DNA of 64,000 nucleotides, from the sequence record NC_023593.1; one strand, given 5' to 3'. A program made the translations under genes and the position numbers. The stretch comes from Escherichia phage KBNP1711. Below, in pieces: positions 25,544 to 50,052 of this stretch (position 1 is the stretch's first letter; each line of letters starts with the position of its first letter). The notes beneath the pieces are model-generated. The model was not told the DNA's origin. It searched no databases and saw only the letters and a list, made by a program, of their open reading frames with translations.

Positions 25544-25936
25544 TCATCGAATCACCAAAGGCTCATCAGAATACACAGGAGCGGCTATTTCTACAGGAGG
25601 TGCTGCTTTAAGGTCATTGAGTCTTACACCCTTTAGCATCCCATCTAGGTGGTCCATCTTGGGGATTCCAACAGGGAAGTCATCAATCCAAATATCTACA
25701 AAGAAACCAAGCTGCCGACAAACATCATCTTTCTGTACACCATTACAAAAGATAATAGGAATCTGCAAGCACTCTGCATCAATCTTAATGTCGTGGTTGT
25801 CGTACCCATTAGGCTCTGCAAAGCGATAAGTTACGAATCGTACATCATAACCCTTCGACTGCATTAATGCTACCACAGAACGCCACAGCTCTTTATCAGA
25901 GGTGTAGGTATCATCGTAATCTAAACCAATGTTCAT
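25544..25936 (-). CDS. HAD-superfamily phosphatase-like protein
   Basis: N-terminal LDYDDT (DxDxT) and later IWIDD motifs. Confidence 0.5.
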   Translation of the reverse strand: MNIGLDYDDTYTSDKELWRSVVALMQSKGYDVRFVTYRFAEPNGYDNHDIKIDAECLQIPIIFCNGVQKDDVCRQLGFFVDIWIDDFPVGIPKMDHLDGMLKGVRLNDLKAAPPVEIAAPVYSDEPLVIR

Positions 25937-26527: not shown

Positions 26528-26719
26528 TCACTCTTCCATTTGAGGAATCTCTAAATGCTTTATAGAGAAGTTTTTATTTGGGAAAGTCTTTATTAGCCAA
26601 GCTGCTTCTTGGATAGCTTTGTTTTCTTTCTCGTAAATACAAAGCCGAGAATCCAATGAAACAATCCTCCCGGTTTCGCTGAAGATAGCCCATGTTTTGT
26701 ATGTGTAAGTAGGTGTCAT
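26528..26719 (-). CDS. hypothetical protein
   Basis: 63-aa ORF. Confidence 0.35.
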   Translation of the reverse strand: MTPTYTYKTWAIFSETGRIVSLDSRLCIYEKENKAIQEAAWLIKTFPNKNFSIKHLEIPQMEE

Positions 26720-27091
26720 TTATTTCTCCAACACCGAGATGCTATATCTATCGTGTAAGGTTTTTCTAACCCAAGCAATGCGTTTAGGGTTTTTGTGATG
26801 AGAGCCTGTGTAACGTTCTCTGTGGTATGTGTCACAACCGAAAGGGTATACCGGGTCCTCAAACCCTTCGTGTTCAAACATATACGTCAGATCATTAAAG
26901 TCCGTATGTTTTGTGAAGAAGTAATAGCTTTTATAACAACGGTAGTTGAAACACAAACCGTGCTCAGGACTGAACCATTTTGGGTATTCGTCTGTCTGAG
27001 AGATGTTATAATACTGGAGGAGGAAATCCTCCATCCCCCTTTCTTTGGCAATACATCTTAGTGTTCGGTAAATAATGTTACTTTGTTTCAT
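26720..27091 (-). CDS. hypothetical protein
   Basis: 123-aa ORF. Confidence 0.4.
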   Translation of the reverse strand: MKQSNIIYRTLRCIAKERGMEDFLLQYYNISQTDEYPKWFSPEHGLCFNYRCYKSYYFFTKHTDFNDLTYMFEHEGFEDPVYPFGCDTYHRERYTGSHHKNPKRIAWVRKTLHDRYSISVLEK

Positions 27092-27100
27092 TGTGAATTC

Positions 27101-27586
27101 TCAATGTGTGTGATTCCAGTTTAATCCTATCTGACAATCAGATGCCAGAGGACATTCCATCTTGAGGTACTCACCAGCTTTCTTAACACAAAGCTCTGTA
27201 AGCTCTTTTAGCTTTTGTGCATCATTACGGTGAACAGAGAACTGCCCTTCATCGTGCATGTCAATAACCTTCGCACAACGAACACCATCACGCTCAATCC
27301 ACTTGTTAAGGAAAAGCATGGCATACTTCATAACAATCGCACCAGCACTCTGTAATAGGGTATTCAGTGCTTTATGAACCATTACCTTACCTGTTGCATC
27401 ACGTCTCATTGTAACACGACGACCATCAACACCCAAGATATAACCTTGAGCTGCCTTCTCTGTCATACGTTCAATAAGAATTGCAATACAAGGATTCTCT
27501 GCCAAGAAACGTGCTCTCATTACTGCACCTTCTTCAGAGCCTCCACCAACGATAGAACCGAGCTTAGCATCACCTGCCCCATCAAT
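27101..27586 (-). CDS. DNA polymerase (family A, T7 gp5-like), exon 2 / C-terminal part
   Basis: Reading frame open upstream of the track Met gives ...IDGAGDAKLGSIVGGG... then HKALNTLLQSAGAIV and HDEGQF (motif C), colinear with T7 DNA polymerase after motif B; 5' boundary approximate. Confidence 0.65.
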   Translation of the reverse strand: MDGAGDAKLGSIVGGGSEEGAVMRARFLAENPCIAILIERMTEKAAQGYILGVDGRRVTMRRDATGKVMVHKALNTLLQSAGAIVMKYAMLFLNKWIERDGVRCAKVIDMHDEGQFSVHRNDAQKLKELTELCVKKAGEYLKMECPLASDCQIGLNWNHTH

Positions 27587-28367
27587 AGTTCAAGCAAAGG
27601 CGCTACTCTTTGCTCCGTTCTCTTATGAACTGCTTACAGTTTCCTGTAAGATCGGACTATATCTTCATCTCCACCTTTACGTGCTGAGAGACAGGCGCTT
27701 CCGTAACACTTGTTACGTACTCCCTTCCGGGATAGTCTCTGAACTTTCCGTGACACAAACTTTTCTACATAGATCAATGAACTGAGCATCAGATAGTTTA
27801 CCTTTTGCATTATTCACTTCCCAAGTTACCCATTGGACATTTCCAATTTCGTAACCTTTCGAATTATCCTTCCTATCTAAAGAAAGTTTATTCGGATGTC
27901 CGCTGACGAAAGATAGTGAATCTCCTGTCAAGGCACATTTGTAGTTTTGCTGAGAAAGAAGCTCGAATAAATAGTCTTGAGTAATCGTGAACTCAAAACC
28001 CCTTTCTCTAGCTCTGTGATGGGAGTTGTGATATCTCTCACGAACCGCTCCACCCCAAGTTTGTCGATATTGTCCCATAGCAGCAGATGCTGCACTTCTG
28101 TTTCGACGTCTCCACTCATTTGAAGCAATGAGAGCACAATTTTTTACATTGACATTGCTTTCCATCTTTACTCTTAGATGAATTATGGAAACTGTCGAGT
28201 GGCTTTTCTTCGCCACAGCTTGAACATATCTTTGTCATAAACACCTCCTTGTGTTGATGTTTATGTCACGGCTTAGCTGCTGATTGGCATATCTTTCGAC
28301 TTAGCTTTCCAGCAATTCACCTGTTTTGCTTCTGCACATTTCTATGCAGTGAACCAATTATTTAGTT
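27587..28367 (-). mobile_element. intron (group I-like) carrying an HNH homing endonuclease ORF, inserted at polymerase motif B
   Basis: Polymerase frame broken by stops between ...RDNAKTFIYAF and IDGAGDAKLG...; intervening ~780 nt has its own RBS and endonuclease ORF; boundaries +/- about 10 nt. Confidence 0.55.
27713..28238 (-). CDS. intron-encoded HNH homing endonuclease with apparent frameshift
   Basis: ATG 28238 with AAGGAGGTG RBS encodes MTKICSSCGEEKPLDSFHNSSKSKDGKQCQCKK then stops; HNH domain (HNSHHRARERGFEF...DRKDNSKGYEIGNVQWVTWEVNNAK) continues in another frame after an A6 run near 28140. Confidence 0.6.
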
Positions 28368-29729
28368 AAAGGCATATATAAATGTCTTCGCATTGTCACG
28401 AGTAGGAAGACCAGCAAGTCTCTGATTATGAGAATGGATATCACCTTCTAACAGAATATCACGATACATAACAGCAGAAGCTAAACCACGTTCAGCTAAT
28501 GCTTTCTTACCAGCGTTACCTTCTGCAATTGCTTCAGCAAGCATGTCTCTACACTCTTTAATGAGGTAGTGAGCAAGCATACGAAGCTCTAATCCAGAAC
28601 CATCATAACCTAGGAAGAGTTCTCTACCAGCTGGTACATAATACTTATATAACCCTACTGGTTTGTCTTTCTTTCCGGGTTTTCCACGTTCGTAGATAAC
28701 GTTTGTATTTTTTCGTAAGTAACACCCATCAGGGATATTGTTGGTAATGATGAAAGGATAGTTATGACTATCATCTGTGGAGTAGTTAGATTGAAATAAA
28801 CTCCTACACTCGTGACCAAACAGACCGCGAGAAGGAATATTAACAACAATGCGATGTTTAAAACGAAATGTCGGAGTAGCGCAGCTATTAGCTTCCGCTG
28901 AGAGTTTACCATCTGGACGTTCCTTATCAATCAGTCCATTAATCAAGCCTAGTCTGTGAGCCGCTACAACACGTCTCTTAAGCAGACTTCCCACCTTACC
29001 TAGATCACCCTCAAGACCTTCTTCAAGAGTCTCTTCGAGGTTTGTAGGAGCTGTGGGCCACTTGTTCGAAGTAGCTAATGCTCTCTTAATTTCATCAAAG
29101 GTTACAGGTTTCTTCCTGTTAGGGTTTAAACCTAAACCAAAGACATAAGCCTTCATGTAGTTGACAGTTTTGTGACGAAAGTGCTTATCCAAGAATTTCT
29201 TGATATCAGCATCAACCATCTGAGCTGTCTGTCGCTCTTTCTCATTGCCACGCATCCAAGAGTTGTACCATTCTTGATACGTTCCACACTTACGCAAGGC
29301 TCGCTTAATCTCAAATGTGTTCCAAGGCTTCTTAGATGTATTAAATTCTGGAGGAAGAAAACCTTCATCCATCAGTGCTTCTTTAACTCGTGCATCCTTT
29401 GATGGGTCAAAGTCAACATACTCAACACAAGTAAAAGCTCCACCGATATCTTCCCTCTTTAACCCCACTCTGTCACAATATAATTGAGGCCACTTCTGAA
29501 GAGCACCAGTCTTCTTAAAGGGTTTCATGTAAGTAGAACCATCAACCCTCATCTTAGGTAACAGAGGAATCAGCTCTCTGTCGATGTTAACGATAATCTC
29601 TCTGAGAAGGTGAACATACCACCGTGCATTCCTCCGATTAAAGTTGACACCACTCTTCGCTTGCTTTGAAATTATATCAGCGACAGTCATCTCCGTTAAG
29701 AACGGAAGTACATCAGGGTTCTCCATCAC
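28368..29729 (-). CDS. DNA polymerase (family A, T7 gp5-like), exon 1: polymerase domain through motif B
   Basis: GYDGSGLELRMLAHY (motif A) and LPTRDNAKTFIYAF (motif B/O-helix) align with T7 gp5 GIDASGLELRCLAHF / LPTRDNAKTFIYGF. Confidence 0.7.
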
Positions 29730-35446: not shown

Positions 35447-35656
35447 TCAGTAGTAAATTACTTTAGACATAAAAGAACCAGTGTTAGGGTCTTCATGCCA
35501 GCGATGTATGTCAGCGCTTTTTACTATTGTGCCCAGAGTCTTCAACTGTTTCTTAGCAATACGAGCCTCTTTGCGAGTGTCAAACAATTTGATGTTATCT
35601 TTTCTCATATGTTGCTCAAGATCCCAAACAACATGAATAGCCCACATCTTTTTCAT
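35447..35656 (-). CDS. small basic protein, paralog family B
   Basis: Tandem array member. Confidence 0.45.
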   Translation of the reverse strand: MKKMWAIHVVWDLEQHMRKDNIKLFDTRKEARIAKKQLKTLGTIVKSADIHRWHEDPNTGSFMSKVIYY

Positions 35657-35871
35657 TAGTAATGTACCTTTCCGCTGATATAAATACGGCCTGAGGTATA
35701 CTCATAGCCCTTGAGAATCTTAACAGAGGTAGTGGAGCCATCGTTTAGTGCACAGATTGACTTCTTAAGATTGCGTGCATCTTCTCGTGTCTTCTGGTAG
35801 GTCATGGTCACACCCCCACTCTTCCACTCTGTTTTAACTAACCAAACTATTTTCATAAGACCTGCTCTCAT
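35656..35871 (-). CDS. small basic protein, paralog family B
   Basis: Tandem array member. Confidence 0.45.
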   Translation of the reverse strand: MRAGLMKIVWLVKTEWKSGGVTMTYQKTREDARNLKKSICALNDGSTTSVKILKGYEYTSGRIYISGKVHY

Positions 35872-36083
35872 TAGTAGTACACCTTGCTACCAGCCATAAA
35901 TGCCCCTGTTGAGTTTATCATGGCTTTGCTGATAGTAACTTTCTTACACCGTAAACATACCTTCCAGTTCTTTTTACAGATTCGAGCTTCTTGTCGAGTG
36001 TTACAAAAAATAGCCGAAGATATTTCTTGGGTGTTGTTATCATAAACACGAACACACCACTTTTTCATTGTTCCAAACTCCAC
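35871..36083 (-). CDS. small basic protein, paralog family B
   Basis: Tandem array member. Confidence 0.45.
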   Translation of the reverse strand: MEFGTMKKWCVRVYDNNTQEISSAIFCNTRQEARICKKNWKVCLRCKKVTISKAMINSTGAFMAGSKVYY

Positions 36084-36283
36084 TATCTGTCAACCGATTC
36101 AGGGACAAACTGCATTACACAGACCTGATTACGAGGAAGGTTTATTTCACAAGCGGCTTTTCTATCAGCAACCTTAGATGACGAGTTAGGGCCAATTTGA
36201 GCCATCATTAATCCCATAGCTAACATGCCGAGGATTACACCAATTGCTAAAGATGCTACAGTTTCTTGTTTCATCTTGATCAC
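36083..36283 (-). CDS. small membrane protein
   Basis: Hydrophobic ASLAIGVILGMLAMGLMMA segment. Confidence 0.35.
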   Translation of the reverse strand: MIKMKQETVASLAIGVILGMLAMGLMMAQIGPNSSSKVADRKAACEINLPRNQVCVMQFVPESVDR

Positions 36284-36813
36284 ACCCCTTTAGATGCAAC
36301 TACACCTTCAGAATTATTATAACGACCCTTCACTGCATATGAATGTTCCCCTGCATGAGAGTGCTCAAACATAACCATCTGACCAACACGCATACCAGCA
36401 CGAACTCGTAAGCTATGATGCTTGGTTACGTTATGGAATTCAAATGTCAGCTTACTGCTATTAAACCCTGCGTCTGCCCACCCAGCGTGGAGATGGTTCA
36501 AGCCACAACGAGCCATCGAAGACCGCAGGACAAACAAACTGGAGATGTTATCTGGAAGGTTAAACTCTTCCATCGAGTGAGCTAAGAAGAATTGTCCCGG
36601 AGTAATGATAATACCGTCTTCAGGGATTTTTACTTCTTTCCACTTGAGATTTTCTTTCGCATCAATGTCAACAATCCCATCAGCCTGTTCTTCAATAAGG
36701 ATAGTATCACCAATACGGATATCCACACTAGCAGCGTTAACATACTTATGCTCCGCATCCAGAAAACCGTTATCGATAACGTCGTGTAATTCCATGCTTC
36801 CTAATAAACTCAT
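36280..36813 (-). CDS. dCTP deaminase/dUTPase-family protein
   Basis: ASVDIRIGD and HAGWADAGF motifs. Confidence 0.65.
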   Translation of the reverse strand: MSLLGSMELHDVIDNGFLDAEHKYVNAASVDIRIGDTILIEEQADGIVDIDAKENLKWKEVKIPEDGIIITPGQFFLAHSMEEFNLPDNISSLFVLRSSMARCGLNHLHAGWADAGFNSSKLTFEFHNVTKHHSLRVRAGMRVGQMVMFEHSHAGEHSYAVKGRYNNSEGVVASKGV

Positions 36814-36827
36814 TCTTATTCCTTATG

Positions 36828-38108
36828 TTAATCTGTGATACTGTCGCTTTCGTCAACCCAGACTGGATTATTAATCTGTCCTAAACGACGAGCTGATGTT
36901 TCGTTAATAGAGTTAACCCCTGCTGTGCGAGGGTTTGTGTACCACGGTCGGACTATGCTACCCGACTGAATTGCTTGGTTTGCTTCTACATGCCACCTGT
37001 TTGATACCGTGTTGGCTTCAAAGTTACCACCCGCTCCACCACTGATAGGCACAGCTTGAGCTGGTTGATTTACTCGGTTAGTTCCTGCCCCAAAGGCTGC
37101 TGCAAATTCAGACACACGTGCACTAAATGAAGAACGAGCACGCTGAGGAGGTGATATATCATTTCGTGTATCTACTGCACGAGGCATAGCCCAAGTATCA
37201 TCTGTTGAGATATCAGGGGTAGGCTCTTGCTCTAGAGGTTGAAGATTAGCTGTCCATTGACTATTCAGTATACGATAGAAATCTGCACCATAACCACTTC
37301 GGATAACATCCTCTCTGACACCAAAGAAGCGACTGATATCCCCACCGATTCGGGCTAGTTTGTCATTGTATGCAGGTATGATTATTCCACCCTCTGTCAC
37401 TAAATCAGAGACACGACTTGTTGTAAGTGGTGAAGTGATCCAACAATAATAATCAGTAATGTGACCATCGTATCCGAAGAATGCAATCTCTGCATCAGGC
37501 CATTTCTTGTGGACATATGCCACTTCACGGTTAGAACAAACAGGGATTGCACCTGTTTCAGTCATTGCATAGAAGCCGTCAGAAGAGAACCAAAGTGAAT
37601 CTAGTGCTAAGAATCCACGACACACGCTCGGGAAAGTAGCAGCCAGCGCCCCAAGTGAGGTAGGTTCATTGAACATTAACTGAATCTTTGCACTCTGATA
37701 ATTAATCTCTAGGATATCTACAAAATTCAAAGAAGACCCAGGGGCATATTGATTATTACTTCGTCCAATATCCTGCTCAATGAGAAGAGATCTTGTTTCA
37801 ACACCATGAGCCTCTGCCCACTCTTTGAAATCTTCAAGGAACAAGCGAGCCTTAGCTCGCCACATCGACCGATCAGTTACAGACTGTCTCGGCAATCCAC
37901 CCTCTGTAGTGATGAGAAAGATATCAATGTCGTGAGGTTCACGCGTCTGAAAGATTGCATCCCTAACAGCACCACCTGCAATGATAGGGTACACACCATC
38001 AGGGATTAAACGGTTTGCAATCAACTCGTTAATTAACGTAAGACCAGACACAAGCTGCGGACTATCATCAATCCGACGACGAATTAGTGCATTAGGGATA
38101 TTATACAT
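36828..38108 (-). CDS. nucleotidyltransferase with CCA-adding-enzyme-like head domain
   Basis: IIAGGAVRDAIFQTREPHDIDIFL = GGxVRD...DxD motif of the Pol-beta-type tRNA nucleotidyltransferase/poly(A) polymerase head; long C-terminal region of unknown type. Confidence 0.5.
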   Translation of the reverse strand: MYNIPNALIRRRIDDSPQLVSGLTLINELIANRLIPDGVYPIIAGGAVRDAIFQTREPHDIDIFLITTEGGLPRQSVTDRSMWRAKARLFLEDFKEWAEAHGVETRSLLIEQDIGRSNNQYAPGSSLNFVDILEINYQSAKIQLMFNEPTSLGALAATFPSVCRGFLALDSLWFSSDGFYAMTETGAIPVCSNREVAYVHKKWPDAEIAFFGYDGHITDYYCWITSPLTTSRVSDLVTEGGIIIPAYNDKLARIGGDISRFFGVREDVIRSGYGADFYRILNSQWTANLQPLEQEPTPDISTDDTWAMPRAVDTRNDISPPQRARSSFSARVSEFAAAFGAGTNRVNQPAQAVPISGGAGGNFEANTVSNRWHVEANQAIQSGSIVRPWYTNPRTAGVNSINETSARRLGQINNPVWVDESDSITD

Positions 38109-38657
38109 TTACATTTTCCAATATAAAGATGGGGGGTCATTTGGGTCAAAGTTTGCAATATGGCAAAGATATTTATAAACCTTAACCGTTAAGTTTACGT
38201 CCTGTTCACAATAAGTAAACATGTCCTCTGTAAAGGCATCCCATGCTTCTTCCTGTTCACCGTAATCACCCTTAAGCTCTTCTAAGAACTCACCCCATTG
38301 CTTTAAGCCATGACCTCTTGGGCCATGTCTAGGGTCGCCTTTCGGATACTCAGGACTGTCACCAATACGGTCAGGTTTAAGATACCGACTCAGACATAAA
38401 GTGTCTAGGACGTTGAATTTGTAATCAATCAAATCAGGGTACATCTTCTTCAGAGCACATAAGTCGAAGTCAATAACGTTATGACCTACAACAACATCAG
38501 CCTCTGTAAGTTTCTTGATACCCTCTTCAATCTGGTGAGGGCGAAATCCCCACCGTTCACCAGTTGATATATCGAAGATAAAGATACACCATACGTTTGT
38601 GATATTGTCGTACAGTGCATCACTCTCAATATCAAATGCGTAGACTTTCTTTACCAC
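38109..38657 (-). CDS. 3'-5' exonuclease homologous to the proofreading domain of T7 DNA polymerase, encoded as a separate gene
   Basis: [36 protein letters not shown] align with the Exo I-III motifs of the T7 gp5 N-terminus. Confidence 0.75.
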
Positions 38658-40441
38658 GGGCTTTTCTCTCCATCTTGAGCAAGAAGTGATGCTGCATCCT
38701 CTCCATTTGTCAGCGAGAATGGGTTTTCTTCATCAATTTCATGATCTTCACGCTCAAGCAACCGTCCCGTCTCTCCTACATACTTCGTATAGCACACCCC
38801 TGTTTGTCCATAGTTACGCTCTTTGAGGAGTCGTATAATGGAGAGGTTCTTAGCCAGACCATCTGCTTGTTTGTCACGTTCAAAACCGATGATACATTGA
38901 CACCAACGCATAAGAGAACGAGAGCCAGTAAACTGTACCTCTCGAACCTGACCACCTTCTTCATGAGGTGCACCACCTGCCGGAGCATTGAGGTGAGATA
39001 GTACGAATGCTGTGAAGTTTAATTCTTGACACATACCAGCAAGCTCGGAAGCAATCTTACTGATTTCAGTGTTAATCTCTGAAGGTGTTAAATGAGACAC
39101 CAGAGCGGTAATGTTATCAAGGATGATAAACTTACACTGGTTTTCAACAACCCAGAAACGGATACACTGTTTAATGTCGGCCCATTCATTCTGACCAAAG
39201 TTATCATAGAGGAAGAATTTATCTGCATATCGAAGAGCTTCGTTACGCAATGTATCTTCATCATACTCAACATCAGGTCTATGGAAAGGAATAGATGCTG
39301 ACTTGCCTGCAATGTTCTTAACGGACATTCCGACCTTCTCTTCCAAGAAGAATCCGCCACCATTAAAACCATGCTCAAGGCAAAGCCAAGCAACCAGTTC
39401 ATGTGCAATCAATGTTTTACCAGAGCCTACACCACCACCAATTGCTACCATTTCTCCCCAACGAATACCGTAGGTCATCTCATTAAGAGTTTTCCACGGG
39501 TATGGGATACCCCACTCTGCTTTCTTCAGAGCATCATCTAAGCAATCAAAAACAGTTACAGCACCAGCTGGAGATTCCCGCTTCGCTGAATATTTAAGAA
39601 TGTTAAACAATTCCTGACCACGACCAGAGAGGAGCATATCATTCGCATCTTTAAGCTCTTTCTCAACACCGTTGTACTGGAAAGAACCTTTAGGAATACG
39701 AGCAAACTTCACATGTGGGAACAGAGCACGCCCTTTGGTAAGAGCAATCTCACCAGCATCATCGTTGTCCATACAAAGGACAACCTCTTCAAAACCATTC
39801 AAGAACTCACGGTTGCGAGACAGAACGGAAGAAATCGACCCTGCACCGAACGGTAAAGAGACACACGCTGGTTTAATGTTTGTTGCATTTGTAAAAGCTG
39901 TAAGAACGTGGAAGCCAGACATGCAAGACAAGGGGTCTTCAAAGATGAAGAGCTTCTTATTATACACATCTCCACGTTTAGCCTGTGCCATACCAAACAA
40001 ATCAGCTTCTTTCACACTACCGATGTAATAAAACTTTTTACTATCAAGTAGTTTAACCTCGTAACCGACAATGTTTCCGTCACGTTCACGAGGAAAGAAG
40101 TAACTGTCCGGTGTCTGACCATCAGTTTGACTGAGACCAATACGACATTCAAAACGCTCTGATACAGCTTTAGGGATTAATCGACGAGTGAGTTCTCCTT
40201 GAGGTAACTCCAAGCAATCATCCAAGACCTCTCGAAGTTCTTCAGGGGACAGCTCTTTCTTTTCATTTGGTGTAGGTGTCGTGCCTTTCTCAAAGACTTC
40301 GTAATTACCACACCGGTTACAACTACCCCACTCTTCACCGGATTCCTCATTACGGAAGAGAATCATGTGATTGTGGGTTTTATCACGACCATGAGAGATG
40401 CACTCCTTACAGCCTGTGTCTCCCAAAATGATCTTTGACAT
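38651..40441 (-). CDS. DNA primase/helicase (T7 gp4-like)
   Basis: N-terminal Cys4 zinc motif, primase region, Walker [10 protein letters not shown] and DnaB-like helicase motifs. Confidence 0.8.
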
Positions 40442-41361: not shown

Positions 41362-41600
41362 AAAGAAGTTACTCCCTTATCTTCTTGGGCGATAGAGATG
41401 ATACGACTCACACACTGCATTGAGTACTCATCTCCACGCTTTAGGAACGTTACGATAGCAGAGAATTGATTACCAATCATCCGCTCATTTGTGATACCGA
41501 ACTCTTTGCAGAGTTCTTTCAGTTTGCTACGAGAACCAATAATCAGAGGCTCTTTTTCTTCAGTCATTCCGCGACTAATCAAATCTTCAATAGACAACAT
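41358..41600 (-). CDS. hypothetical protein
   Basis: 80-aa ORF. Confidence 0.35.
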   Translation of the reverse strand: MLSIEDLISRGMTEEKEPLIIGSRSKLKELCKEFGITNERMIGNQFSAIVTFLKRGDEYSMQCVSRIISIAQEDKGVTSL

Positions 41601-41623
41601 AATTCCATTCCTTGGGGGTTTAA

Positions 41624-42841
41624 TTAAAAGTTTACTACTTCACCATTAACGGTAGTTACTGATGCAAGACGACGAACACGACCAATCTGTTCACGACTAA
41701 TTGGAGTGTTCCAACCAGAGCGATAGAAGTTGCGACCGCAGAAGAATACAACAACATTAGAAGCAATCCGTCCGTAGTTACGATCAGGGTGGTTGATATT
41801 CGCTAGGTAATATCCACGGGTCAGGTTTGCATTTTCATTAATGGGACGAGCATTTGGTGCAGTTGTTTCAGCTTGCATCACTTCTTGAACTTCTTCAACA
41901 ACAGGCTCAACTGTAGGAGTATCACCAGCTAAAGCAAAGTTCTCATCAGCAGCCTCTTCTGCATCATCTTCCAGCTCCACAGTTTCCTGAATAACTGGCA
42001 GAGGGTATGCTACACGATACTCAGGGTTTTGACCACGGAGAGACTCAACATACTGCAAGAAGTTGTGCTGGTAAGTTTCCAGAGTCGTACCAGTCAGGCC
42101 CGGAGCGGTGTTAACTTCTAACACCCATGCTTCCTCGCCTTTACTGATAATGTCAACAGCACCAAAGTTAAGACCGAGTGCTTGTACTGCTTTGTGCGCT
42201 TGAATCAGAACCTGATCATTTGGTGAATCATTAAAAGCATTTGAATAAACCCAACCAGTGTGATGATTACGAACATCTTCACGATAGTCAGGGTTATCAC
42301 GATACCCATTACGACGAATCTTCTTCTGTACGTAAGTAATAACACCTTCAAAGACATGAACACGCCATTCACGACGTGGGCCAGTGATTGCTTTCGTGTA
42401 CAGAGGAGCCTCTGCAATACCTTCACGAGTAAGACGAACAGTGATACCTTCACCAGAGTGACCGTTCAGTACACCACGTTCATAAACAATACTATTTCGG
42501 TTCCAGTTCTGTGCTTCTTCACGATTAGTGGTATATTCAACAGTCTTGACTTCCGCAAGACGCATAGTATTGAAAGCTGCAACCTTGTTCGCCGCACGAT
42601 TCAACGCTGCTACGTTGTTCAGGACCGTTGCACCTTCGAAGAAGGATTCTTGATAACGACGGTTTCCGTAGTTGATGATCACATCACCAGAACGAGCACG
42701 GAATCGGCTGGTTCCATCAGACAGAAGAGCCATTGCGTTAGCATTGATTCGGTTGTCACGGAGATGTTGATTCAAGCTGGACACCAGAGCATTAACAGAA
42801 TCAGAAGGGCCATAAGGGAGAACACGGATACGAGTAGTCAT
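41624..42841 (-). CDS. ATP-grasp family ligase
   Basis: EWRVHVF and LGLNFGAVDIISKGEEAWVLEVNTAPGL match the ATP-grasp C-terminal nucleotide-binding motifs. Confidence 0.55.
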   Translation of the reverse strand: MTTRIRVLPYGPSDSVNALVSSLNQHLRDNRINANAMALLSDGTSRFRARSGDVIINYGNRRYQESFFEGATVLNNVAALNRAANKVAAFNTMRLAEVKTVEYTTNREEAQNWNRNSIVYERGVLNGHSGEGITVRLTREGIAEAPLYTKAITGPRREWRVHVFEGVITYVQKKIRRNGYRDNPDYREDVRNHHTGWVYSNAFNDSPNDQVLIQAHKAVQALGLNFGAVDIISKGEEAWVLEVNTAPGLTGTTLETYQHNFLQYVESLRGQNPEYRVAYPLPVIQETVELEDDAEEAADENFALAGDTPTVEPVVEEVQEVMQAETTAPNARPINENANLTRGYYLANINHPDRNYGRIASNVVVFFCGRNFYRSGWNTPISREQIGRVRRLASVTTVNGEVVNF

Positions 42842-42843
42842 TT

Positions 42844-43077
42844 TTAGATACCTTTAAGTTTAAGAATTTCGTTGCGAGTACGTTGGATACGTTCTTCAAG
42901 AGTGTGATAATCAAAGATGCAGATCTCTTCTGCTTCATCAGAAGGTGCATCCATTAAACCCATAGCAATCGGATACACTTTTCGCTGTTCCGTTGTCATG
43001 TTCTGTAGCCGGAGTCGTTGATACTCCAGCAGGGTAATTTTCGGCTTGTTAGTTTCCTTGCTTGACATGAGGCTCAA
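42844..43077 (-). CDS. hypothetical protein
   Basis: 77-aa ORF. Confidence 0.3.
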   Translation of the reverse strand: MSLMSSKETNKPKITLLEYQRLRLQNMTTEQRKVYPIAMGLMDAPSDEAEEICIFDYHTLEERIQRTRNEILKLKGI

Positions 43078-43282
43078 CCTTGATACCTTTCAGTTTCACA
43101 TAGTCAGCCAGCACGTTGTTAATAACTGTTGGGAAAGGAATCTCAACAGGTGCATTAACTAACCCACCAATACCCTCTTGCATCCACTTCTGGATTGCAC
43201 GAAGGTTATCACATCCTGTGCTTGTCATTGGAATACGGCGAGTGGTTACAACGTTATCCAACATCATCTTACGAATTTCCAT
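43049..43282 (-). CDS. hypothetical protein
   Basis: 77-aa ORF. Confidence 0.3.
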   Translation of the reverse strand: MEIRKMMLDNVVTTRRIPMTSTGCDNLRAIQKWMQEGIGGLVNAPVEIPFPTVINNVLADYVKLKGIKVEPHVKQGN

Positions 43283-43292
43283 AATACACCTC

Positions 43293-45311
43293 TTAATTAT
43301 GACCTTTACAGTGCACTGAATCGCACACCACTTGATTGGTATTGTTTAGTGTGCAGAGTTCTGCATCACGCCACGGAATCTTTTTAAAACAGACTGCACA
43401 AAACCCCAAAGTAGACCAGAGGGCTTTTGTGAAGGTTGCTGAACGGTTTCCATCGGAAGAGGCAACTGTTCTGGTAATTGAGACTTTTGACTCACGAAAG
43501 GTTTCCGCTACTGGAGCGGATTCCTCCTTTGGGGTAGTCACTGCAATAGCATAAATACCACCCCAACGCTTCTCAATGTAAGCACCGAATACATCTTCCA
43601 GAGTGATTTCACTCTTACGCTTGGTTGAGGATTCCATGACAACCATGTTGTCCAGAATCTTTTGATCGACACGAAGAGCTACTTCAGGACGTCGAGCACT
43701 TGTTGTATCAACACACTTAGTCCAAACATAACCCTCTTTCAGGGTGACTTGAGTTGCTTGCTTCTTTGCTTTATTAGCACAGATTTTACAAACATCGTCA
43801 CCACGAAGTTTACTGAACTCTTCATCAAATTCAAAGTCAGACTTCACTTCACCGCACACCGAACAAACACCGATAGGAATCTCATCCTCTTCAACGTCTT
43901 CTACTTGCTTCTGGATAGAATCAAAACAAGCTTTATGCCAATATGCTTGGTATGCGAAGATTGCACTTGGGGCTTCTTTCCAGTCGATGTGCTTATCACA
44001 GCCACCACAATCACCATGGGAATGGGCTTCCCAGAACTTACGAGTGATAGTCACCCCATTCTTGCTGACAAAACTATCCTCTGCATCAAAAGGGATATCA
44101 TCATCGAAATCAGCTGTAGTGCTTTCCGGCTCCTTTTTCGACAAGTCAAAGAAGTGACCAGAGATCAACACCAAACGAATCATGCTATTAACTTCAGAAA
44201 TACAGCCAACCGTACCACGGTAAACCATATGCTTATTCTTAAGAGCAGCTTCGTAATCAGTTTGCAGGATGTTATGAACATCACCCTCAATATACTCTTG
44301 AGCTTTGTCATCATAAATATAACCAACCATCTTACCGCGATCGGTATCTTTATAACAAACAAACTCGTGAGGAATAATATCAACCTGCATATCACGACGG
44401 ATATCAACACCTTTGTCAGATGCGATCTTGTTTTGTTTCAAGATTGCTTCACGACGACGTACATCACCTGCGGTTACGCCGGGCTTTCTTTGCTCGTCGC
44501 TGTTCCCGTTTACGTAACTTTTTATCCCGCTTGAGTGATTGTTGCTGTAGCTGTTCGAGTAATAACTTCCCCAACGCGTTGCTACCGTAAAAACCGGGAG
44601 TTCATGTACGACCTCCTCTACCAAAGTCATCTTGTTGTCAGAAACATCAAAGATGTACTCTGTACCGACTTTACACTCAAAGTGCTCATCGATTCGATTC
44701 TTGTGGCTCTTAGAACGCTGAAGAATCCACATCAACATAGCTTCTTCTGAAGCACCAAACCATGAAGTTCCCAGACGGGCCAGATGGAATGGACGCTCAT
44801 CGTTGCGAATGATGTGAAGACGGTTATCACTTGCATCATGCCAGATCAGAGTGAATGCACCATCCAACTTCTGAATAGTCTCTGCTGCACCAATCTTGTT
44901 AATAGAGTGGCAGATGTTCTCACTATCAACCTCAAAAACCTTACTGTCAGGCAGAAGGTCTTGATCAACTAAGGTTCCGTTATGAACCAGAGTGATGTTT
45001 CCGTGAGAGAATGGGTGAGCGTTACGTGAGTTAATAGCACCTTTCGTAGCATGTCGGCTATGACCAACAATCCATGAAGGAGGCACTGTGTAATTAGTAA
45101 GGCCAGTTGTCAGCTCGGTGTACTCTTTCTGTAACATGAAAGCATAGGAAGGTAGTGCTTCTTTGTAAGAGAACACAGATCTTTCGCTTTTACGCTGACC
45201 GAAAATACCAGTTGAGTGTTGACCACGAAATACACCAGCATAAAGAAGCTGGTTGTAAACATCTAAGTCATAACTTGAGAGGCTTCCACCTGCTAATACG
45301 ATACCACAAAT
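43293..45311 (-). CDS. class-II (Ntn) glutamine amidotransferase domain protein with long Cys-rich C-terminal extension
   Basis: Hand translation upstream of track start gives (ATT)-CGIVLAGG...VFRGQHSTGI...HNGTL; SD AGGTGG 8 nt before ATT 45311; track ORF begins at GTG 45176. Confidence 0.6.
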   Translation of the reverse strand: MCGIVLAGGSLSSYDLDVYNQLLYAGVFRGQHSTGIFGQRKSERSVFSYKEALPSYAFMLQKEYTELTTGLTNYTVPPSWIVGHSRHATKGAINSRNAHPFSHGNITLVHNGTLVDQDLLPDSKVFEVDSENICHSINKIGAAETIQKLDGAFTLIWHDASDNRLHIIRNDERPFHLARLGTSWFGASEEAMLMWILQRSKSHKNRIDEHFECKVGTEYIFDVSDNKMTLVEEVVHELPVFTVATRWGSYYSNSYSNNHSSGIKSYVNGNSDEQRKPGVTAGDVRRREAILKQNKIASDKGVDIRRDMQVDIIPHEFVCYKDTDRGKMVGYIYDDKAQEYIEGDVHNILQTDYEAALKNKHMVYRGTVGCISEVNSMIRLVLISGHFFDLSKKEPESTTADFDDDIPFDAEDSFVSKNGVTITRKFWEAHSHGDCGGCDKHIDWKEAPSAIFAYQAYWHKACFDSIQKQVEDVEEDEIPIGVCSVCGEVKSDFEFDEEFSKLRGDDVCKICANKAKKQATQVTLKEGYVWTKCVDTTSARRPEVALRVDQKILDNMVVMESSTKRKSEITLEDVFGAYIEKRWGGIYAIAVTTPKEESAPVAETFRESKVSITRTVASSDGNRSATFTKALWSTLGFCAVCFKKIPWRDAELCTLNNTNQVVCDSVHCKGHN

Positions 45312-45385
45312 TTTCTAATCCACCTGAAGGGTAAACCCTTTCATCTAATTAACCTTTAATTGTGCCCCTTTCGAGGCACCCATTG

Positions 45386-46486
45386 TTACAGCAGTCGTTC
45401 TAACTGAATTTCCAAGTGGTCTGGAATATACTCAGTGACGTTGTTATCAGAGACGCCAGATTCACGCATCATGTTGAGCATGTTACGAATCTGCCCTTCT
45501 GTTGCTTCACGAGTTTCACTAATCTCTGTTTCATACAGAGCCATGATCTCGTTATGAACATCTTGAGCATTACCACGGACATATCCGAGGAAGCCATAGA
45601 AGTCAGACATATCACGAAGGGATACAACTACCGACCCACTACTATCAAGAGTTTGTAAACGAATACGCCCAACCTGACGCACAGATCGGTTACGACAGAA
45701 CAGGATATCACGAGCCAGACGATAACCGCTATCAAGATCTTCGTGTCTTGGGGTGTAGTCCAGAGGTAGGTGCGGGAGCATAGGGTCAAAACGAACCCTG
45801 TTGAGCATCTCAACAAACTCTTCATTGTCCATCTCTGCATTTTCAACTGCTAATTTCTTAAGAACCAAGAAGCGGTTTACCAGATTTAACAGCTGACCTT
45901 TCTTCCACTTAGGCTCTGAGATACGGAACTCAACAGAACCGAACTGAGCCAGAGGGAGTAGGTTGAGTGATGTGTACTTATCCCAACGGTCGACGATATG
46001 TCGGAAGAAGTTCTCACCTTCGTAGTTAAATGCTTCAGAAGCGTTCATTACTTGAGCCTGAACCACTGCAAAAGCAGGACAGAAATTACTACGGTAACGG
46101 TGATAACCAGAGCACTTAAACATCAATGCTTCATAGAAAGTCCACCCAAGGATAACTTTCTTAACGATATTGCTATCAGCATCTCGCATATCCATATGAA
46201 CGTGAGTGGAACATCGCCAAGTCCCTTCTGCTTCGGACTCCATCACTGCCTCACTCAGATTGTTGATAGCGTCAAACAGTTCTACACCATTGTAAGGGCG
46301 AGAACAGACCATTTCACATCCGTTGCGAAGCGAGCCATCCTCTGTACATTCCCACATATCTGCTTCGATATGATCGTCACCTTCAAGCTCCAGCTCAATA
46401 CCAATACCGCATTGGAATGCGATACTCGGATGTGCTTCACTCAGACGATTACTACGGTATCCAAAAGCTTGCGCTACAGTTGTCAT
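45386..46486 (-). CDS. glutamine synthetase-like amidoligase (carboxylate-amine ligase) candidate
   Basis: IGIELELEG near N-terminus and CSTHVHMD resemble the Glu-x-Glu and His-x-His metal motifs of GCS2/amidoligase enzymes. Confidence 0.45.
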   Translation of the reverse strand: MTTVAQAFGYRSNRLSEAHPSIAFQCGIGIELELEGDDHIEADMWECTEDGSLRNGCEMVCSRPYNGVELFDAINNLSEAVMESEAEGTWRCSTHVHMDMRDADSNIVKKVILGWTFYEALMFKCSGYHRYRSNFCPAFAVVQAQVMNASEAFNYEGENFFRHIVDRWDKYTSLNLLPLAQFGSVEFRISEPKWKKGQLLNLVNRFLVLKKLAVENAEMDNEEFVEMLNRVRFDPMLPHLPLDYTPRHEDLDSGYRLARDILFCRNRSVRQVGRIRLQTLDSSGSVVVSLRDMSDFYGFLGYVRGNAQDVHNEIMALYETEISETREATEGQIRNMLNMMRESGVSDNNVTEYIPDHLEIQLERLL

Positions 46487-47097
46487 AACGACTCCACTAA
46501 CTCCACAGTGTATTGGTTAAAATCACTTTCAATATGCTTGAACTTGTCAAGCAGTTGTACGGTCTGACGACCACGGCTGTCATATCCAGCACTAAGAAGC
46601 ACACGACCAACATGTGCACCTTTATAATAAACAAGACCATCAGAAGGATTGATGAAGATAAAGCGAGTCAACAAGCCTTCAAAGGATGGGTTAAACAGGT
46701 TATAAACCATCTCACCAGAGATGTTACGACCTAGAGAAGTTACGCCACGGAGTTTGTTACCCATCAACCCCTTAGCTCGCTGACGAACTGGATTGATGTG
46801 AGTCCAACTTACCATGTTACGTCCGTGTTGAAGATAACCAACATCAGGGGATTCCAGAATCAGGTTAGGGTTGAAAACCCCAATCTGAACTGTTGTACGG
46901 TTAAACCCTGAGTCTGTTTTAAACCAACGCTCTGCTTCGAACATCAAAGCCATCTCTGCTTCATGAGAGAAGTCATCACGAGAGAACTCACCTTGTTGGA
47001 ATACGTTCATAACAAACAGTGGGATGTTTAAGTTCCCACGTCTTTCAGCAATCCATGTCCCACAATAGTAATGAGAGAAGTCAGTTACTAAGCTCAC
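46483..47097 (-). CDS. hypothetical protein
   Basis: 204-aa ORF inside the ligase cluster; Cys at position 12. Confidence 0.4.
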   Translation of the reverse strand: MSLVTDFSHYYCGTWIAERRGNLNIPLFVMNVFQQGEFSRDDFSHEAEMALMFEAERWFKTDSGFNRTTVQIGVFNPNLILESPDVGYLQHGRNMVSWTHINPVRQRAKGLMGNKLRGVTSLGRNISGEMVYNLFNPSFEGLLTRFIFINPSDGLVYYKGAHVGRVLLSAGYDSRGRQTVQLLDKFKHIESDFNQYTVELVESL

Positions 47098-47106
47098 GAT
47101 AACCCC

Positions 47107-47913
47107 TTACGCTACCTGTAAACGTTTCAAGAACACATCTGCTTCACGAACATCGTTGGTGTTGATGATCTGGTGCAGCTTTTCAATCGGAAGGCGAGAG
47201 TGGAGGCTCATCAAGAACTCCATGTCGCTATTTTGTACAACCTTGTCAACTTGATCGTACACGAATTGACGATCTTCTTTCTTGCCAATCCAGAAGTTCG
47301 ACAGAGAGCGATACTCAATGCCATAAGGTTTGTAACGGATTGCGGATGCTTTACCGTACAGCTCTTTACGTCGAGTATCACCATCCATCAGAACAGCAGG
47401 CAATGACAGGAAGTAATCACACAGAACGCCCAGCATCATCTGAACCTTCTTATTCACATCCAGAGAGCCAGTGACACCAATGTGCACATGACCACCTGCT
47501 GTACGCAAGCCCTTGTTCTCTGAAGTTGGAGAAGCATTCTTTTGACCAGTGAATGCGTTGAAGTCTGGAGTACAACCAAACACGAAAGCGGACGGATGGA
47601 ATGATTCCAATTCCTCTTTAGAGAAGATATGAGAACTTACACCCAGAGCCGCTTCCATGTCCTGTTTCTTCAGAACTTCGTTGGTAAGATCAATACCGCG
47701 CTGAACGTTGTCATTAAACGCTTCAAAACCTTGTTGTGGGTTGATATCAAACTCAGCCAGCACGTTGTCTTCTTGGAGACGTACATCCTTAGCCAGATCG
47801 ATTTTATTTTCTTTAGAACAACCCAGCTTGCCAGCAACAGAGGTGATGATGCCAGAAGAAGTACGAACAAACATCTCTGGGTCCGTTCCAATTAAAAAGA
47901 TGCGCTTAGTCAT
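47107..47913 (-). CDS. glutamine synthetase/GCS2-like amidoligase candidate
   Basis: Internal Met start MTKRIFLIGTDPEMF and RTAGGHVHIG motifs. Confidence 0.45.
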   Translation of the reverse strand: MTKRIFLIGTDPEMFVRTSSGIITSVAGKLGCSKENKIDLAKDVRLQEDNVLAEFDINPQQGFEAFNDNVQRGIDLTNEVLKKQDMEAALGVSSHIFSKEELESFHPSAFVFGCTPDFNAFTGQKNASPTSENKGLRTAGGHVHIGVTGSLDVNKKVQMMLGVLCDYFLSLPAVLMDGDTRRKELYGKASAIRYKPYGIEYRSLSNFWIGKKEDRQFVYDQVDKVVQNSDMEFLMSLHSRLPIEKLHQIINTNDVREADVFLKRLQVA

Positions 47914-48835
47914 TATAGTATTCCACCAATTCTTTAAAGAGGGATATGATTGTTTCTTTGTTGCTCTCCATATTAGAGCCGCAACGACTTTCAATACGTT
48001 CTAAGAAACCATTTACATTGATGTTAGAAATCTTTTCATCAAGAGATGAACGTTTCCAACCAGTGCTCATAGACCAAACTCTCAAAAAGGTACTCATTGA
48101 AGAGTACATCTCTGCGTTTTGGTTTCGACGACGAGCAATACGACGAAGAGCTGCACGGTCATGGTTTCGGATATACCCTGATGTGTTATCACCTTCTCCG
48201 ACTTTGTTTTGCAACCAAACGTCGGTTGAAAACTCACCTGTATTGCAAATAATCGGAAGAAATGCAAATGCTGGTAAATCATGCGGTAAATAGATAGATG
48301 TTGATTCGTCAGTGGAGTCATTAACTCTATCAAAGTTAAGCTCCCCAAAGAAGTCCTTACTTACCCCAGCAAGAGCTAGAGCTAATCCAACACGACGACG
48401 GAATAGCCATTCTTCTCTATCATCAACTCCCTCTGAAAGAAAATCCATAGATTCATACTCGCAATCGAGATAGCTACGGAAAGTCATTAGTCCTGTAAAA
48501 ACTTTATCTGCTGCGTGTTCACGAAGATCAACCTCTACACTATTAGCAGAAGTTATTGTGAACATATCTTTGTACATAGAACAGGAGTTCAGTACATCAG
48601 CAGTATCCACCAAATGAGACTCAGTCTCATCCATGTTGCAGTGGGGCCAGTAGTTAATCTTACCCATGTGCGCTGTGAAGTTATCCAAGCTGGTTCGAGT
48701 ACTCAGGCCGTTAATGTCACGAGTGCTAAAGTTGTGCATAGAGTTGTGGATACCGAAACAAACTCGGCTCGCAAAACTCTGCTCACCCAACATATCACTA
48801 ACTTCTACAGGAGCTAATGTTGTGGAAATTGCCAT
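47906..48835 (-). CDS. hypothetical protein
   Basis: 309-aa ORF. Confidence 0.4.
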   Translation of the reverse strand: MAISTTLAPVEVSDMLGEQSFASRVCFGIHNSMHNFSTRDINGLSTRTSLDNFTAHMGKINYWPHCNMDETESHLVDTADVLNSCSMYKDMFTITSANSVEVDLREHAADKVFTGLMTFRSYLDCEYESMDFLSEGVDDREEWLFRRRVGLALALAGVSKDFFGELNFDRVNDSTDESTSIYLPHDLPAFAFLPIICNTGEFSTDVWLQNKVGEGDNTSGYIRNHDRAALRRIARRRNQNAEMYSSMSTFLRVWSMSTGWKRSSLDEKISNINVNGFLERIESRCGSNMESNKETIISLFKELVEYYND

Positions 48836-48847
48836 TGTCTTTAACCT

Positions 48848-50041
48848 TTAATTTCCTAAGAAAAGTTTCGTGAGAATTGAATCCCACTCCGTACTAGGCA
48901 GCACATCAAAGCTGCTATTATTTGACAAATTCGACTGTTGAAAGTGGCGAATCAGTGTGTAAGTGTTAACACGGTCATTACCAAATCGAGTATACAACAA
49001 CTCGTTTCGAGTCTTGTCTGATAGGGAAATAGCTTTGGCAAAAGCTACAATCAGCATAGGCTCTTTGAGGGCACGATCTTGAAGGGCTTCTGGTTGAATA
49101 ATAGGTAAGAACATCGAGTTGTTTACATACAGCTCATGCTCTTCGTGTCCGGGAACGTCATACCAAATACTCTGGTAGTCTTCATCACGAAAATGTCCTT
49201 CACCAGCCATATATGACGGTTGACGCCACGCGGTCTGGCGAGGTTCTGCCATATTAGCTCCGATACCCACTGTGTACAGTGTTACAGGGAACAGGCAGTT
49301 GTCATATTCGTTACCAGTAAAGGCAACTCGTACTTCACCAAACAGGTTCTCTTTTGCGTTAATCAATCGAGAATAGGCAAGAGCTTGTAACGGAGACCAA
49401 TTATCCATGTAGAGCTTATCAAGGAAAGTCCACACGTTTGCTTGTTCGTCTTCTTGATAGAACAGACGATTCACCATAAGGTAGAACAGGCAACGATCAG
49501 CAGGAACTGGTTCAGATACATCTTCTGTTACTACACCCATAAAACCTTTTTCATGCCAAACAAGACATGAAGGACGATCTTTATCCATGAAAGCTTCAAG
49601 CGCTTCCATAACTGACTTGACAGTTACATCAGGACGTTCACGATATTCAGCCCAAAGCTCAACTGCATTCTTAGGCTTTTCATCCCCTACATCAGCGTGA
49701 TAGAAAGCATATTGGAAGGAGATGATGTTGTTGCTCCCATCCTTTCCACGCATAGGGATGTGGGTTCCAGAGTTCCAGATAATACGAATATCTTCCATTG
49801 ACATATTTCTGCTCAGGACTTCATCTCTGCCTGAGCTTTGCATCAAGCTATAGCTGCTATCCCAAACATGGACATACTGCGTCCAGCCTTCATTGGCTTC
49901 GTAGGTAATGGGGTCGTAATAGTCGTCATCTTCATCACAATCATCACCACCATGGTAGTTGTCGTGCTGAAGAAATCCATAGCAAGGAGGCCAGACTGTT
50001 AATACGTTGTCGTGCTTATCCTGCAATGTTACTGGAAACAT
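48848..50041 (-). CDS. hypothetical protein
   Basis: 397-aa ORF with acidic Cys-containing N-terminus. Confidence 0.45.
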   Translation of the reverse strand: MFPVTLQDKHDNVLTVWPPCYGFLQHDNYHGGDDCDEDDDYYDPITYEANEGWTQYVHVWDSSYSLMQSSGRDEVLSRNMSMEDIRIIWNSGTHIPMRGKDGSNNIISFQYAFYHADVGDEKPKNAVELWAEYRERPDVTVKSVMEALEAFMDKDRPSCLVWHEKGFMGVVTEDVSEPVPADRCLFYLMVNRLFYQEDEQANVWTFLDKLYMDNWSPLQALAYSRLINAKENLFGEVRVAFTGNEYDNCLFPVTLYTVGIGANMAEPRQTAWRQPSYMAGEGHFRDEDYQSIWYDVPGHEEHELYVNNSMFLPIIQPEALQDRALKEPMLIVAFAKAISLSDKTRNELLYTRFGNDRVNTYTLIRHFQQSNLSNNSSFDVLPSTEWDSILTKLFLGN

Positions 50042-50052
50042 TTTGAAACCTC

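Follow-up and report, generated by a model that had tools for sequence, protein, structure and literature searches.

The 64,000-nucleotide stretch of Escherichia phage KBNP1711 DNA analysed here (sequence record NC_023593.1; hereafter the window) encodes a nucleotidyltransferase (NTase) that belongs to the gp73 family, named after the phage phiEco32 protein. Our comparisons identify gp73 as an apparently catalytically intact, phage-exclusive enzyme that derives from the class II NTases, the group of CCA-adding enzymes and bacterial poly(A) polymerases, and that has been cut down to the head domain, perhaps with a remnant of the first neck helix, followed by a variable and predicted disordered tail. 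Its ancestry lies among class II enzymes, yet by its motifs and domains it does not qualify as a CCA-adding enzyme. Tentatively, we suggest that it would extend 3' ends, most plausibly of RNA, without a template. The gene is the following:

36828..38108, minus strand: complete NTase coding sequence of 426 amino acids (aa) with an ATG start, taken from the list of open reading frames (ORFs)

The 3 kb of DNA around the gene are 96% identical to phage EP335 and 93.5% identical to the BASEL phage KarlSchell/Bas89. The source is a phiEco32-like (Gordonclarkvirinae) podophage of E. coli, with EP335 and Bas89 as its nearest relatives. At the protein level the NTase is 96% identical to its EP335 orthologue and 91% identical to that of Bas89 (Bas89_0068), and it is syntenic with phiEco32 gp73 (phi32_73, a 'hypothetical protein') and SU10 gp74. 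The profile of the gp73 family, phrog_12715, matches residues 1-425 with E=6.5e-164. A first-pass annotation of the window had placed a Pol-beta head of the class II type at this position. The observation is correct, and the gene is already in databases with essentially the same annotation: orthologues carry the label 'nucleotidyltransferase' in RefSeq and in the BASEL annotation. Moreover, the SU10 genome paper (2014) had remarked on a class II CCA-enzyme motif in the gp74 orthologue, and the BASEL paper (2025) suggested that the NTase and the dCTP deaminase next to it might modify DNA together (PMC11990801). Searches of one literature library found no functional study of the gp73 family or of its small relatives. 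What our analysis adds is, first, that gp73 does not look like a tRNA repair enzyme and occurs as exchangeable, apparently very old alleles with a disordered variable tail inside a rigid kuravirus gene block. Second, it places gp73 in a large, phage-exclusive and uncharacterised superfamily of cut-down class II NTases that has its own signature and is spread over T7-like, phiKMV-like, rV5/phAPEC8-like and marine phages.

A class II-type head with conserved catalytic residues

Conservation was assessed in an alignment of 27 divergent gp73-family homologues, whose identities reach down to ~21%. Together with an AlphaFold2 model, it divides the protein into these parts:

37284..38108, minus strand: folded catalytic region, aa 1-~275, comprising a class II-type head, a short helix, possibly left over from the neck, and a small alpha/beta region
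37917..37982, minus strand: motif A, aa 43-64, IAGGAVRDAIFQTREPHDIDIF, with invariant G45, G46, R49, D50, D60, D62 and F64; it aligns to motif A of CCA-adding enzymes
37716..37718, minus strand: codon of D131, a candidate third metal-binding carboxylate, from the alignment and the secondary structure of the model
37620..37682, minus strand: superfamily signature, aa 143-163, Q143-x-M145 and F159-P160-x-x-C163, from the alignments
37497..37535, minus strand: conserved helix, aa 192-204, S-x-R-[DE]195-x-x-Y198-x-x-K201-K202-W-P, with invariant Y198 and K202
36828..37283, minus strand: predicted disordered, hypervariable C-terminal tail, aa 276-426, from the model confidence, the tail lengths within the family and the substitution rates given below

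Thirteen residues are invariant across the alignment: G45, G46, R49, D50, D60, D62, F64, Y121, I132, Q143, P160, Y198 and K202. The hallmark of the Pol-beta superfamily, an hG[GS] loop followed by DxD, is thus present, with G45-G46 and D60-x-D62 retained in 27/27. The sequence GGAVRD forms residues 45-50 and DIDIF residues 60-64, and the class II motif A consensus GGxVRDxxLGxxxxDxD fits the motif A segment listed above. In the model, the elements of this motif fall on a predicted strand (40-44), a helix (46-53) and a second strand (61-66). Position 131 is Asp or Glu in 27/27 homologues and lies on a predicted strand (128-137) that adjoins the DxD strand, and D131 is therefore a likely candidate for the third metal-binding carboxylate. 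E134 was considered for the same role and rejected, since it is seemingly invariant in close relatives but replaced by Q, D, N or S in distant members. Loss of the catalytic aspartates, which the first-pass annotation had named as a ground for giving up its reading, is accordingly not seen.

Block values of the predicted local distance difference test (pLDDT) are mostly 80-94 at residues 1-230, fall to ~55 by residue 275 and are ~25 beyond. After ~residue 205 the model contains a small alpha/beta region and then disorder. This agrees with the earlier observation that the remainder of the protein is atypical and has neither the usual body and neck nor an HD domain. The tail ranges from 3 to 217 aa across the gp73 family and is variable in charge. 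Only two short aromatic motifs are conserved in it, [WY]-[ST]-x-[GN]-[LR] near residue 285 (W285-T-A-N-L289) and W311 within DDTWAM; in several short members of the family the Trp equivalent to W311 lies at or close to the C-terminus. Net charge was discarded as an indicator of substrate, since the acidity of the catalytic domain (pI ~5, net charge -7 to -13) is matched by that of the head and neck of E. coli Cca (pI 5.3, net -9).

Relationship to CCA-adding enzymes and poly(A) polymerases

The Pfam model PolyA_pol (PF01743) matches residues 43-65 of the NTase at E=0.094 and 13.5 bits, under its cut-off of 23, and a single-sequence phmmer search of the NTase against the PDB gave no useful match. 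The resemblance to CCA-adding enzymes is nevertheless secure, because a family profile and a fold search agree independently. The profile of the 27 divergent members matches the CCA-adding enzymes 6ibp/7otr in the PDB at motif A (E=0.004; 'givPiIaGGaVRDvlfkntePhDiDI'). In a Foldseek search of the PDB with the model, each of the top 44 matches is either a class II CCA-, CC- or A-adding enzyme or the poly(A) polymerase I of E. coli, with a best E of 3e-5, 11-17% identity and aligned spans of 170-215 residues. OAS1, terminal uridylyltransferases and eukaryotic poly(A) polymerase rank well under the class II enzymes in this list. A structural match to antibiotic NTases, the other outcome that had been named as speaking against the first reading, was likewise not seen among the best matches.

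A direct hhalign comparison of the gp73 family with class II enzymes aligns motif A only (91.5%, 33 columns). The arginines of motif B (RRD) are found in no family member before the strand carrying F159-P160-x-x-C163, and the family alignment shows no discernible motif D (EDxxR). With permissive hhalign settings the conserved helix S-x-R-[DE]195-x-x-Y198-x-x-K-K can be aligned to motif D across a 10-residue gap and with low confidence; it may be a degenerate counterpart of the motif D helix. The alpha-helical neck, body and tail that hold the acceptor and T arm of tRNA are absent from the model and from the structural alignments, and an HD domain is not found in the NTase. Finally, the CCA equivalog models of NCBIfam and the PcnB models (TIGR01942, NF008634) do not match the NTase at E<=0.1. 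Lacking the motif B arginines, the body and tail domains and any match to the curated family models, gp73 does not qualify as a CCA-adding enzyme.

Class II tRNA nucleotidyltransferases (e.g., PDB 1miv, 3h37, 4wby and 1ou5) share motif A and the head fold with gp73, at an overall identity of 10-17%. RRD, a recognisable EDxxR template, motif E and the helical neck, body and tail are missing from gp73, which ends in a disordered stretch of 150 aa. The poly(A) polymerase I of E. coli (PcnB; PDB 3aql/3aqk) differs from gp73 in having kept the neck and body and in its RNA-binding C-terminal region. TENT5/FAM46 and the other non-canonical poly(A) or terminal uridylyl transferases are class I-type eukaryotic enzymes that have a different helical partner domain and are devoid of GGxVRD.

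Besides phage proteins, a search of BFVD with the NTase model matched uncharacterised proteins from dsDNA viruses of the giant and insect-infecting kinds, namely Yasminevirus, Bodo saltans virus (a 'CAA-nucleotidyltransferase'), Glossina hytrosavirus and Hyperionvirus (E ~1e-5 to 1e-3), and cut-down or atypical class II-like NTases may be common across large DNA viruses.

A phage-exclusive superfamily of head-only nucleotidyltransferases

A HMMER search of 1.84 billion representative proteins recovered ~31 clusters of the gp73 family at E<1e-10 and a fringe of ~200-aa proteins. A scan of 185,579 genomes of bacteria and archaea, chosen as species representatives, did not turn up the gp73 family. 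The family is phage-exclusive and is an elaborated branch of small, head-only phage NTases. These small relatives (~190-250 aa) make up the phage-only families phrog_1614, 4400, 10174, 7967 and 18122, and are exemplified by Ralstonia DU_RP_I gp11, Aeromonas Ahp1 ORF19, phAPEC8 gp083 and LKD16 Q0E649. They align to the gp73 family over residues 18-186 (hhalign 99.4%, E=7e-22) and to bona fide class II enzymes with 98% probability (E=2e-13).

The latter alignment extends over all of the head, over the strand of motif B (small relatives FDWNIC, class II RRDLTINA) and over the first neck helix with motif D (...NPFSNLRRGYRFSERY in the small relatives, ...EDPLRVLRVARFAARY in class II). Where class II enzymes have EDPLRVLR, the small relatives have NPFSNLRR. 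FPxxC in gp73 corresponds to FDWNIC and, in class II motif B, to the DFTINA strand. Common to gp73 and the small relatives are GGAxRD, DxDhF, QxM and F[DP]xxhC, their presence in phages and their location in DNA-metabolism modules. In contrast, the motif D-like helix of the small relatives (xNPFSNLRRGYRFSERYG), which aligns to that of class II, is replaced in the gp73 family. Proteins of the gp73 family are also longer, by ~70 folded residues and in most cases by an extended disordered tail, and their genes are fixed in a block between those for an exonuclease and a dCTP deaminase. For two phiEco32-type homologues (P0018 and P0019), the protein database holds a precomputed match to PF26128.2 that is missing from our local Pfam-A scan at E<=1.

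The small relative in Ralstonia phage DU_RP_I, which is T7-like, lies between primase-helicase and DNA polymerase I, in Vibrio phage VP506 between ThyX and primase-helicase/PolA, and in the myophage phAPEC8 ~0.6 kb downstream of Pol I. In Aeromonas phage Ahp1 it is found between DNA ligase and DNA polymerase, with overlapping stop and start codons (PMC5014404). A Pfam scan of further neighbours detected RecT, a fusion of SNF2 helicase and methylase, a DUF2800-family protein and a GMP-reductase-like enzyme. The superfamily thus resides in modules for DNA replication, recombination and nucleotide metabolism, and the gp73 branch is fixed in one block.

A fixed slot between replication and dNTP-supply genes

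The genes that flank the NTase in this block are, on the same strand:

38651..40441, minus strand: T7 gp4-type primase-helicase, first of the conserved four-gene block (Bas89 and phiEco32 annotation; DnaB_C in L022 and L024)
38109..38657, minus strand: DNA polymerase 3'-5' exonuclease subunit (Pfam DNA_pol_A_exo1)
36280..36813, minus strand: dCTP deaminase, directly downstream of the NTase and last of the block (Pfam DCD, E=1.4e-34)

Gene order was compared in the window, in eleven database loci (L001-L004, L007-L010, L022, L023 and L024) and in the Bas89 and phiEco32 records. The order primase-helicase, polymerase 3'-5' exonuclease subunit, NTase and dCTP deaminase is found in every full-family locus examined, and holds in the most divergent ones, those of P0045 (an 85.7-kb contig), P0022 and L010 (a 90-kb contig). 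The TAA stop codon of the exonuclease subunit abuts the ATG of the NTase (...AAAATGTAAATGTAT...). This abutment suggests translational coupling, and the NTase is probably coupled to the exonuclease-subunit gene in this way.

The C-terminus of the primase-helicase (window 38651-38740, minus strand) is acidic and ends on an aromatic residue, ...DGEKSPW.

Apparently old alleles in a rigid block

Conservation in and around this block is uneven. Compared with the proteins of the window, those of other kuraviruses are 92-98% identical for the primase-helicase, 80-99% for the exonuclease subunit and 95-99% for ThyX, whereas the N-domain of the NTase is only 38-42% identical, with the exception of Bas89 (95%). 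In more distant phages the NTase N-domain is 28-33% identical where the primase-helicase is 77-83% identical. Relative to Bas89, the ratio of nonsynonymous to synonymous substitution rates (dN/dS) is 0.12 for the N-domain and 0.47 for the tail, and the synonymous rate (dS) is like that of the neighbouring genes.

Runaway evolution in place was considered as the cause and rejected, on account of the neighbour-like dS, the N-domain dN/dS of 0.12 and the plateau at 28-42% identity whatever the divergence of the neighbours. The variants rather look like old, discrete alleles that have been swapped by recombination in a fixed slot. Purifying selection within the EP335/Bas89 lineage and the identity plateau both favour this view.

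The dCTP deaminase also occurs as two alleles, with 57% versus 94-96% aa identity to that of the window, and they assort independently of the NTase allele. The deaminase alleles compared are those at window 36280-36813 (minus strand), L001 10296-10850 and L008 7333-7860, in kuravirus modules that are otherwise near-identical. Bas89, which has the divergent deaminase allele, carries behind it a gene for an HNH endonuclease that is absent from the window.

Possible activities of gp73

In the reading that we tentatively favour, gp73 would be a template-independent 3'-end tailing enzyme. D60, D62 and D131 would bind two metal ions for the transfer of nucleoside monophosphates from nucleoside triphosphates, and these monophosphates would go, independently of a template, onto the 3'-OH of a nucleic acid, as in the class II ancestors. 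The acceptor would most plausibly be RNA, so that gp73 would not rebuild the CCA end of tRNA but add tails in the manner of poly(A) polymerase while the phage replicates. The disordered tail would serve as an exchangeable adaptor that recruits a partner or the substrate. RNA tailing, which we favour, and the less probable role as a signalling-nucleotide enzyme were the looser alternatives offered by the first-pass annotation. A poly(A)-polymerase-like RNA tailer would be a modest gain for our picture of phage RNA metabolism.

Several points weigh against RNA tailing. Nothing in the NTase sequence points to an RNA-binding surface. The class II residues that select CTP or ATP and discriminate the ribose are not conserved, and with their loss the donor as well as the acceptor might be another one, such as dNTPs, a nucleotide or a protein hydroxyl. 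Alleles of 28-42% identity between neighbours of 77-96% are more typical of host interaction or counter-defence than of a housekeeping role in RNA or DNA metabolism, and this island-like pattern keeps the counter-defence readings alive. The link to replication genes is also looser in the small relatives: PolA or a T7-type primase-helicase lies within 10 kb in 6/25 of their environmental loci (IMG/VR), as judged by a phmmer panel that is partly insensitive and overlooked a PolA in locus L044, which also contains a helicase. On this count we dropped the idea of a universal PolA/primase-helicase linkage and softened it to the module-level statement made above. Finally, the class II region of phage T7 mixes counter-defence with replication genes, so that position alone is weak evidence of a role.

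One counter-defence reading is that gp73 acts on nucleotides, either by synthesising decoy cyclic or linear oligonucleotides or by consuming signalling nucleotides, as do MNT-like phage NTases. According to the preprint of Ho et al., the NTases of Bacillus phage Bcp1 and phage Av05 make 3'3'-cGAMP and c-di-AMP and thereby jam bacterial TIR-STING. Their MNT-like family is marked by GS-x-AY[GAN]T-x4-SDxD, followed ~60 residues downstream by NP-x-h2[DE]. Like gp73, these enzymes are phage-encoded members of the Pol-beta superfamily that come without a cognate sensor or effector, and a functional analogy is conceivable. They form a different clade, however, and their two motifs do not occur at the corresponding positions of gp73: the first is absent, gp73 having AGGAVRD...HDIDIF, and the sole match to NP-x-h2-[DE] (NPVWVD, aa 414-419) falls within the tail, which is not conserved, and is put down to chance. 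Judged by these motifs, gp73 is not a member of the family of Ho et al. Moreover, the CD-NTase and defence NTase models of PADLOC do not match the window protein or three small relatives at E<=1, structural likeness is clearly best to the class II enzymes that tail RNA ends, and the gene is part of a replication block and not of an early anti-defence island. Overall, we consider this activity unlikely.

Alternatively, gp73 could be a replisome terminal transferase acting on DNA 3' ends or RNA primers, for example in the protection or processing of genome ends, and could be recruited to the polymerase through the aromatic motifs of its tail. This would fit with the immediately adjacent gene for the polymerase exonuclease subunit, to which it is probably coupled, and with the small relatives directly upstream of PolA in DU_RP_I and Ahp1 and near PolA in phAPEC8 and L044. 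Acidic tails that end on an aromatic residue (Phe) dock T7 gp4 and gp2.5 onto T7 DNA polymerase. Both the primase-helicase terminus ...DGEKSPW and several short NTase family members that end in ...YDF, ...WTF or ...WDW recall these T7 tails, but the resemblance is weak. Part of the family, furthermore, lacks the tail (3-11 aa in P0040-P0048), and RNA is the specific substrate of class II enzymes. Nor would one expect alleles so extremely divergent in a core replisome partner, given that the primase-helicase is 92-98% conserved. We give such a replisome role a similarly small chance.

The BASEL proposal, in which the NTase acts with the adjacent dCTP deaminase in covalent DNA modification, was prompted by the strong resistance of Gordonclarkvirinae to restriction-modification (RM) in the absence of known modification or anti-restriction genes (PMC11990801). 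It finds some backing here. The two genes are adjacent in every family locus, and the missing ribose-discriminating arginines of motif B would be compatible with the use of dNTPs. Avoidance of restriction sites was tried as a cause of the resistance and rejected, since the counts in the window do not fit for the RM systems to which BASEL reports this subfamily to be resistant: EcoRV (22), EcoKI (6) and EcoP1 (105) sites are all at expectation, and EcoRI is mildly low (11 versus ~21 expected). On the other hand, a class II-type NTase that acts on DNA bases would be without known precedent, and the annotation offers no partner of the hydroxymethylase or glycosyltransferase kind. With ThyX and a dNMP kinase in the phage, the deaminase has an ordinary role in dTTP supply. 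The independent assortment of deaminase and NTase alleles and the small relatives that occur in many phage groups without an adjacent deaminase gene also speak against a dedicated pair. In addition, the window as a whole is depleted of six-base palindromes (633 versus 951 expected), GATC (136 versus ~300) and CCWGG (6 versus ~94), and ten six-base palindromes, including GGATCC and GAGCTC, are absent from it, which suggests that the DNA is exposed to sequence-specific enzymes in nature. DNA modification by this pair is thus quite unlikely.

A bolder version would make gp73-type NTases the core of an undescribed form of genome protection, through nucleotidylation or tailing of phage DNA or through a nucleotide-derived inhibitor. 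It would explain the resistance to type I, II and III systems and would ascribe the alleles to an arms race; we regard it as improbable. Should gp73 act on DNA ends, on a signalling nucleotide or on some component of a defence system, it would represent a new phage strategy for replication or counter-defence and might explain the RM resistance of kuraviruses. The question is open to direct testing in those BASEL phages for which E. coli K-12 is a host, among them Bas89 with its 91% identical protein.

The first-pass annotation had linked the NTase to two phosphoesterases and a phage tRNA, and proposed, among other roles, that it repairs tRNA 3' ends against host nucleases that attack tRNA. The motif A, a near-perfect one of the class II CCA-enzyme type, and the one tRNA carried by the phage are in line with this. 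However, RRD is absent, EDxxR cannot be recognised, and neither the neck, body and tail domains that bind tRNA nor matches to the NCBIfam CCA models are found. The tRNA-Arg(UCU) at 54197-54271 is present, and its gene ends ...GGGGAC-G-CCA: the CCA is genome-encoded, since the Rfam tRNA body stops at the discriminator base (54200) and ARAGORN reaches 54197. The metallophosphoesterase at 24098-24604 is real (phrog_547, E=3e-51), yet it is located ~12 kb away among small genes that are unrelated. The supposed HAD-type phosphatase at 25544-25936 could not be substantiated; it has no Pfam match, and the PHROGs that it hits are all without assigned function. The annotation of Bas89, a close relative, includes neither an RNA ligase nor a polynucleotide kinase. 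As a control, genuine phage Cca enzymes (~490 phage records) are full-length, up to 46% identical to E. coli Cca and easily detected, unlike gp73. tRNA repair is therefore very unlikely.

The Pol-beta fold includes protein adenylyltransferases such as GlnE, MntA and DrrA. Hence gp73 might nucleotidylate a host or phage protein as an AMPylase or similar enzyme, all the more so as no nucleic-acid-binding module is evident and the disordered tail could pick the protein target. Protein-AMPylating enzymes are not among the top structural neighbours, though, and motif A is class II-specific, so that we see little prospect for such an activity. That gp73 is a catalytically dead structural or regulatory protein that keeps only the fold is hardly credible, as the metal- and NTP-binding residues are invariant over ~21-95% identity and the N-domain is under purifying selection.

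Other features of the window

Just downstream of the dCTP deaminase, window 35447-36083 (minus strand) contains three tandem ORFs of 69, 71 and 70 aa. With ...T(R/K)xEAR..KK... as a common core and ...(V/I)(Y/H)Y as a common C-terminus, they resemble paralogues, and they are annotated as hypothetical in relatives.

The region of the family-A DNA polymerase (~26700-29729) appears to be split by an endonuclease ORF (27713-28216, minus strand), and in the Bas89 annotation the polymerase coding sequence is joined from two pieces that enclose an 'endonuclease'. At the Rfam gathering threshold no group I or II intron was found at the polymerase split, the only Rfam match in the window being the tRNA.

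Upstream of the replication block, window ~41600-50400 (minus strand; Bas89_0073-0086) holds a large cluster of genes for peptide or metabolite modification. It comprises an ATP-grasp/RimK-like 'S6 glutaminyl transferase', an amidoligase, a COOH-NH2 ligase, a GlmS-like amidotransferase and a gamma-glutamyl cyclotransferase.

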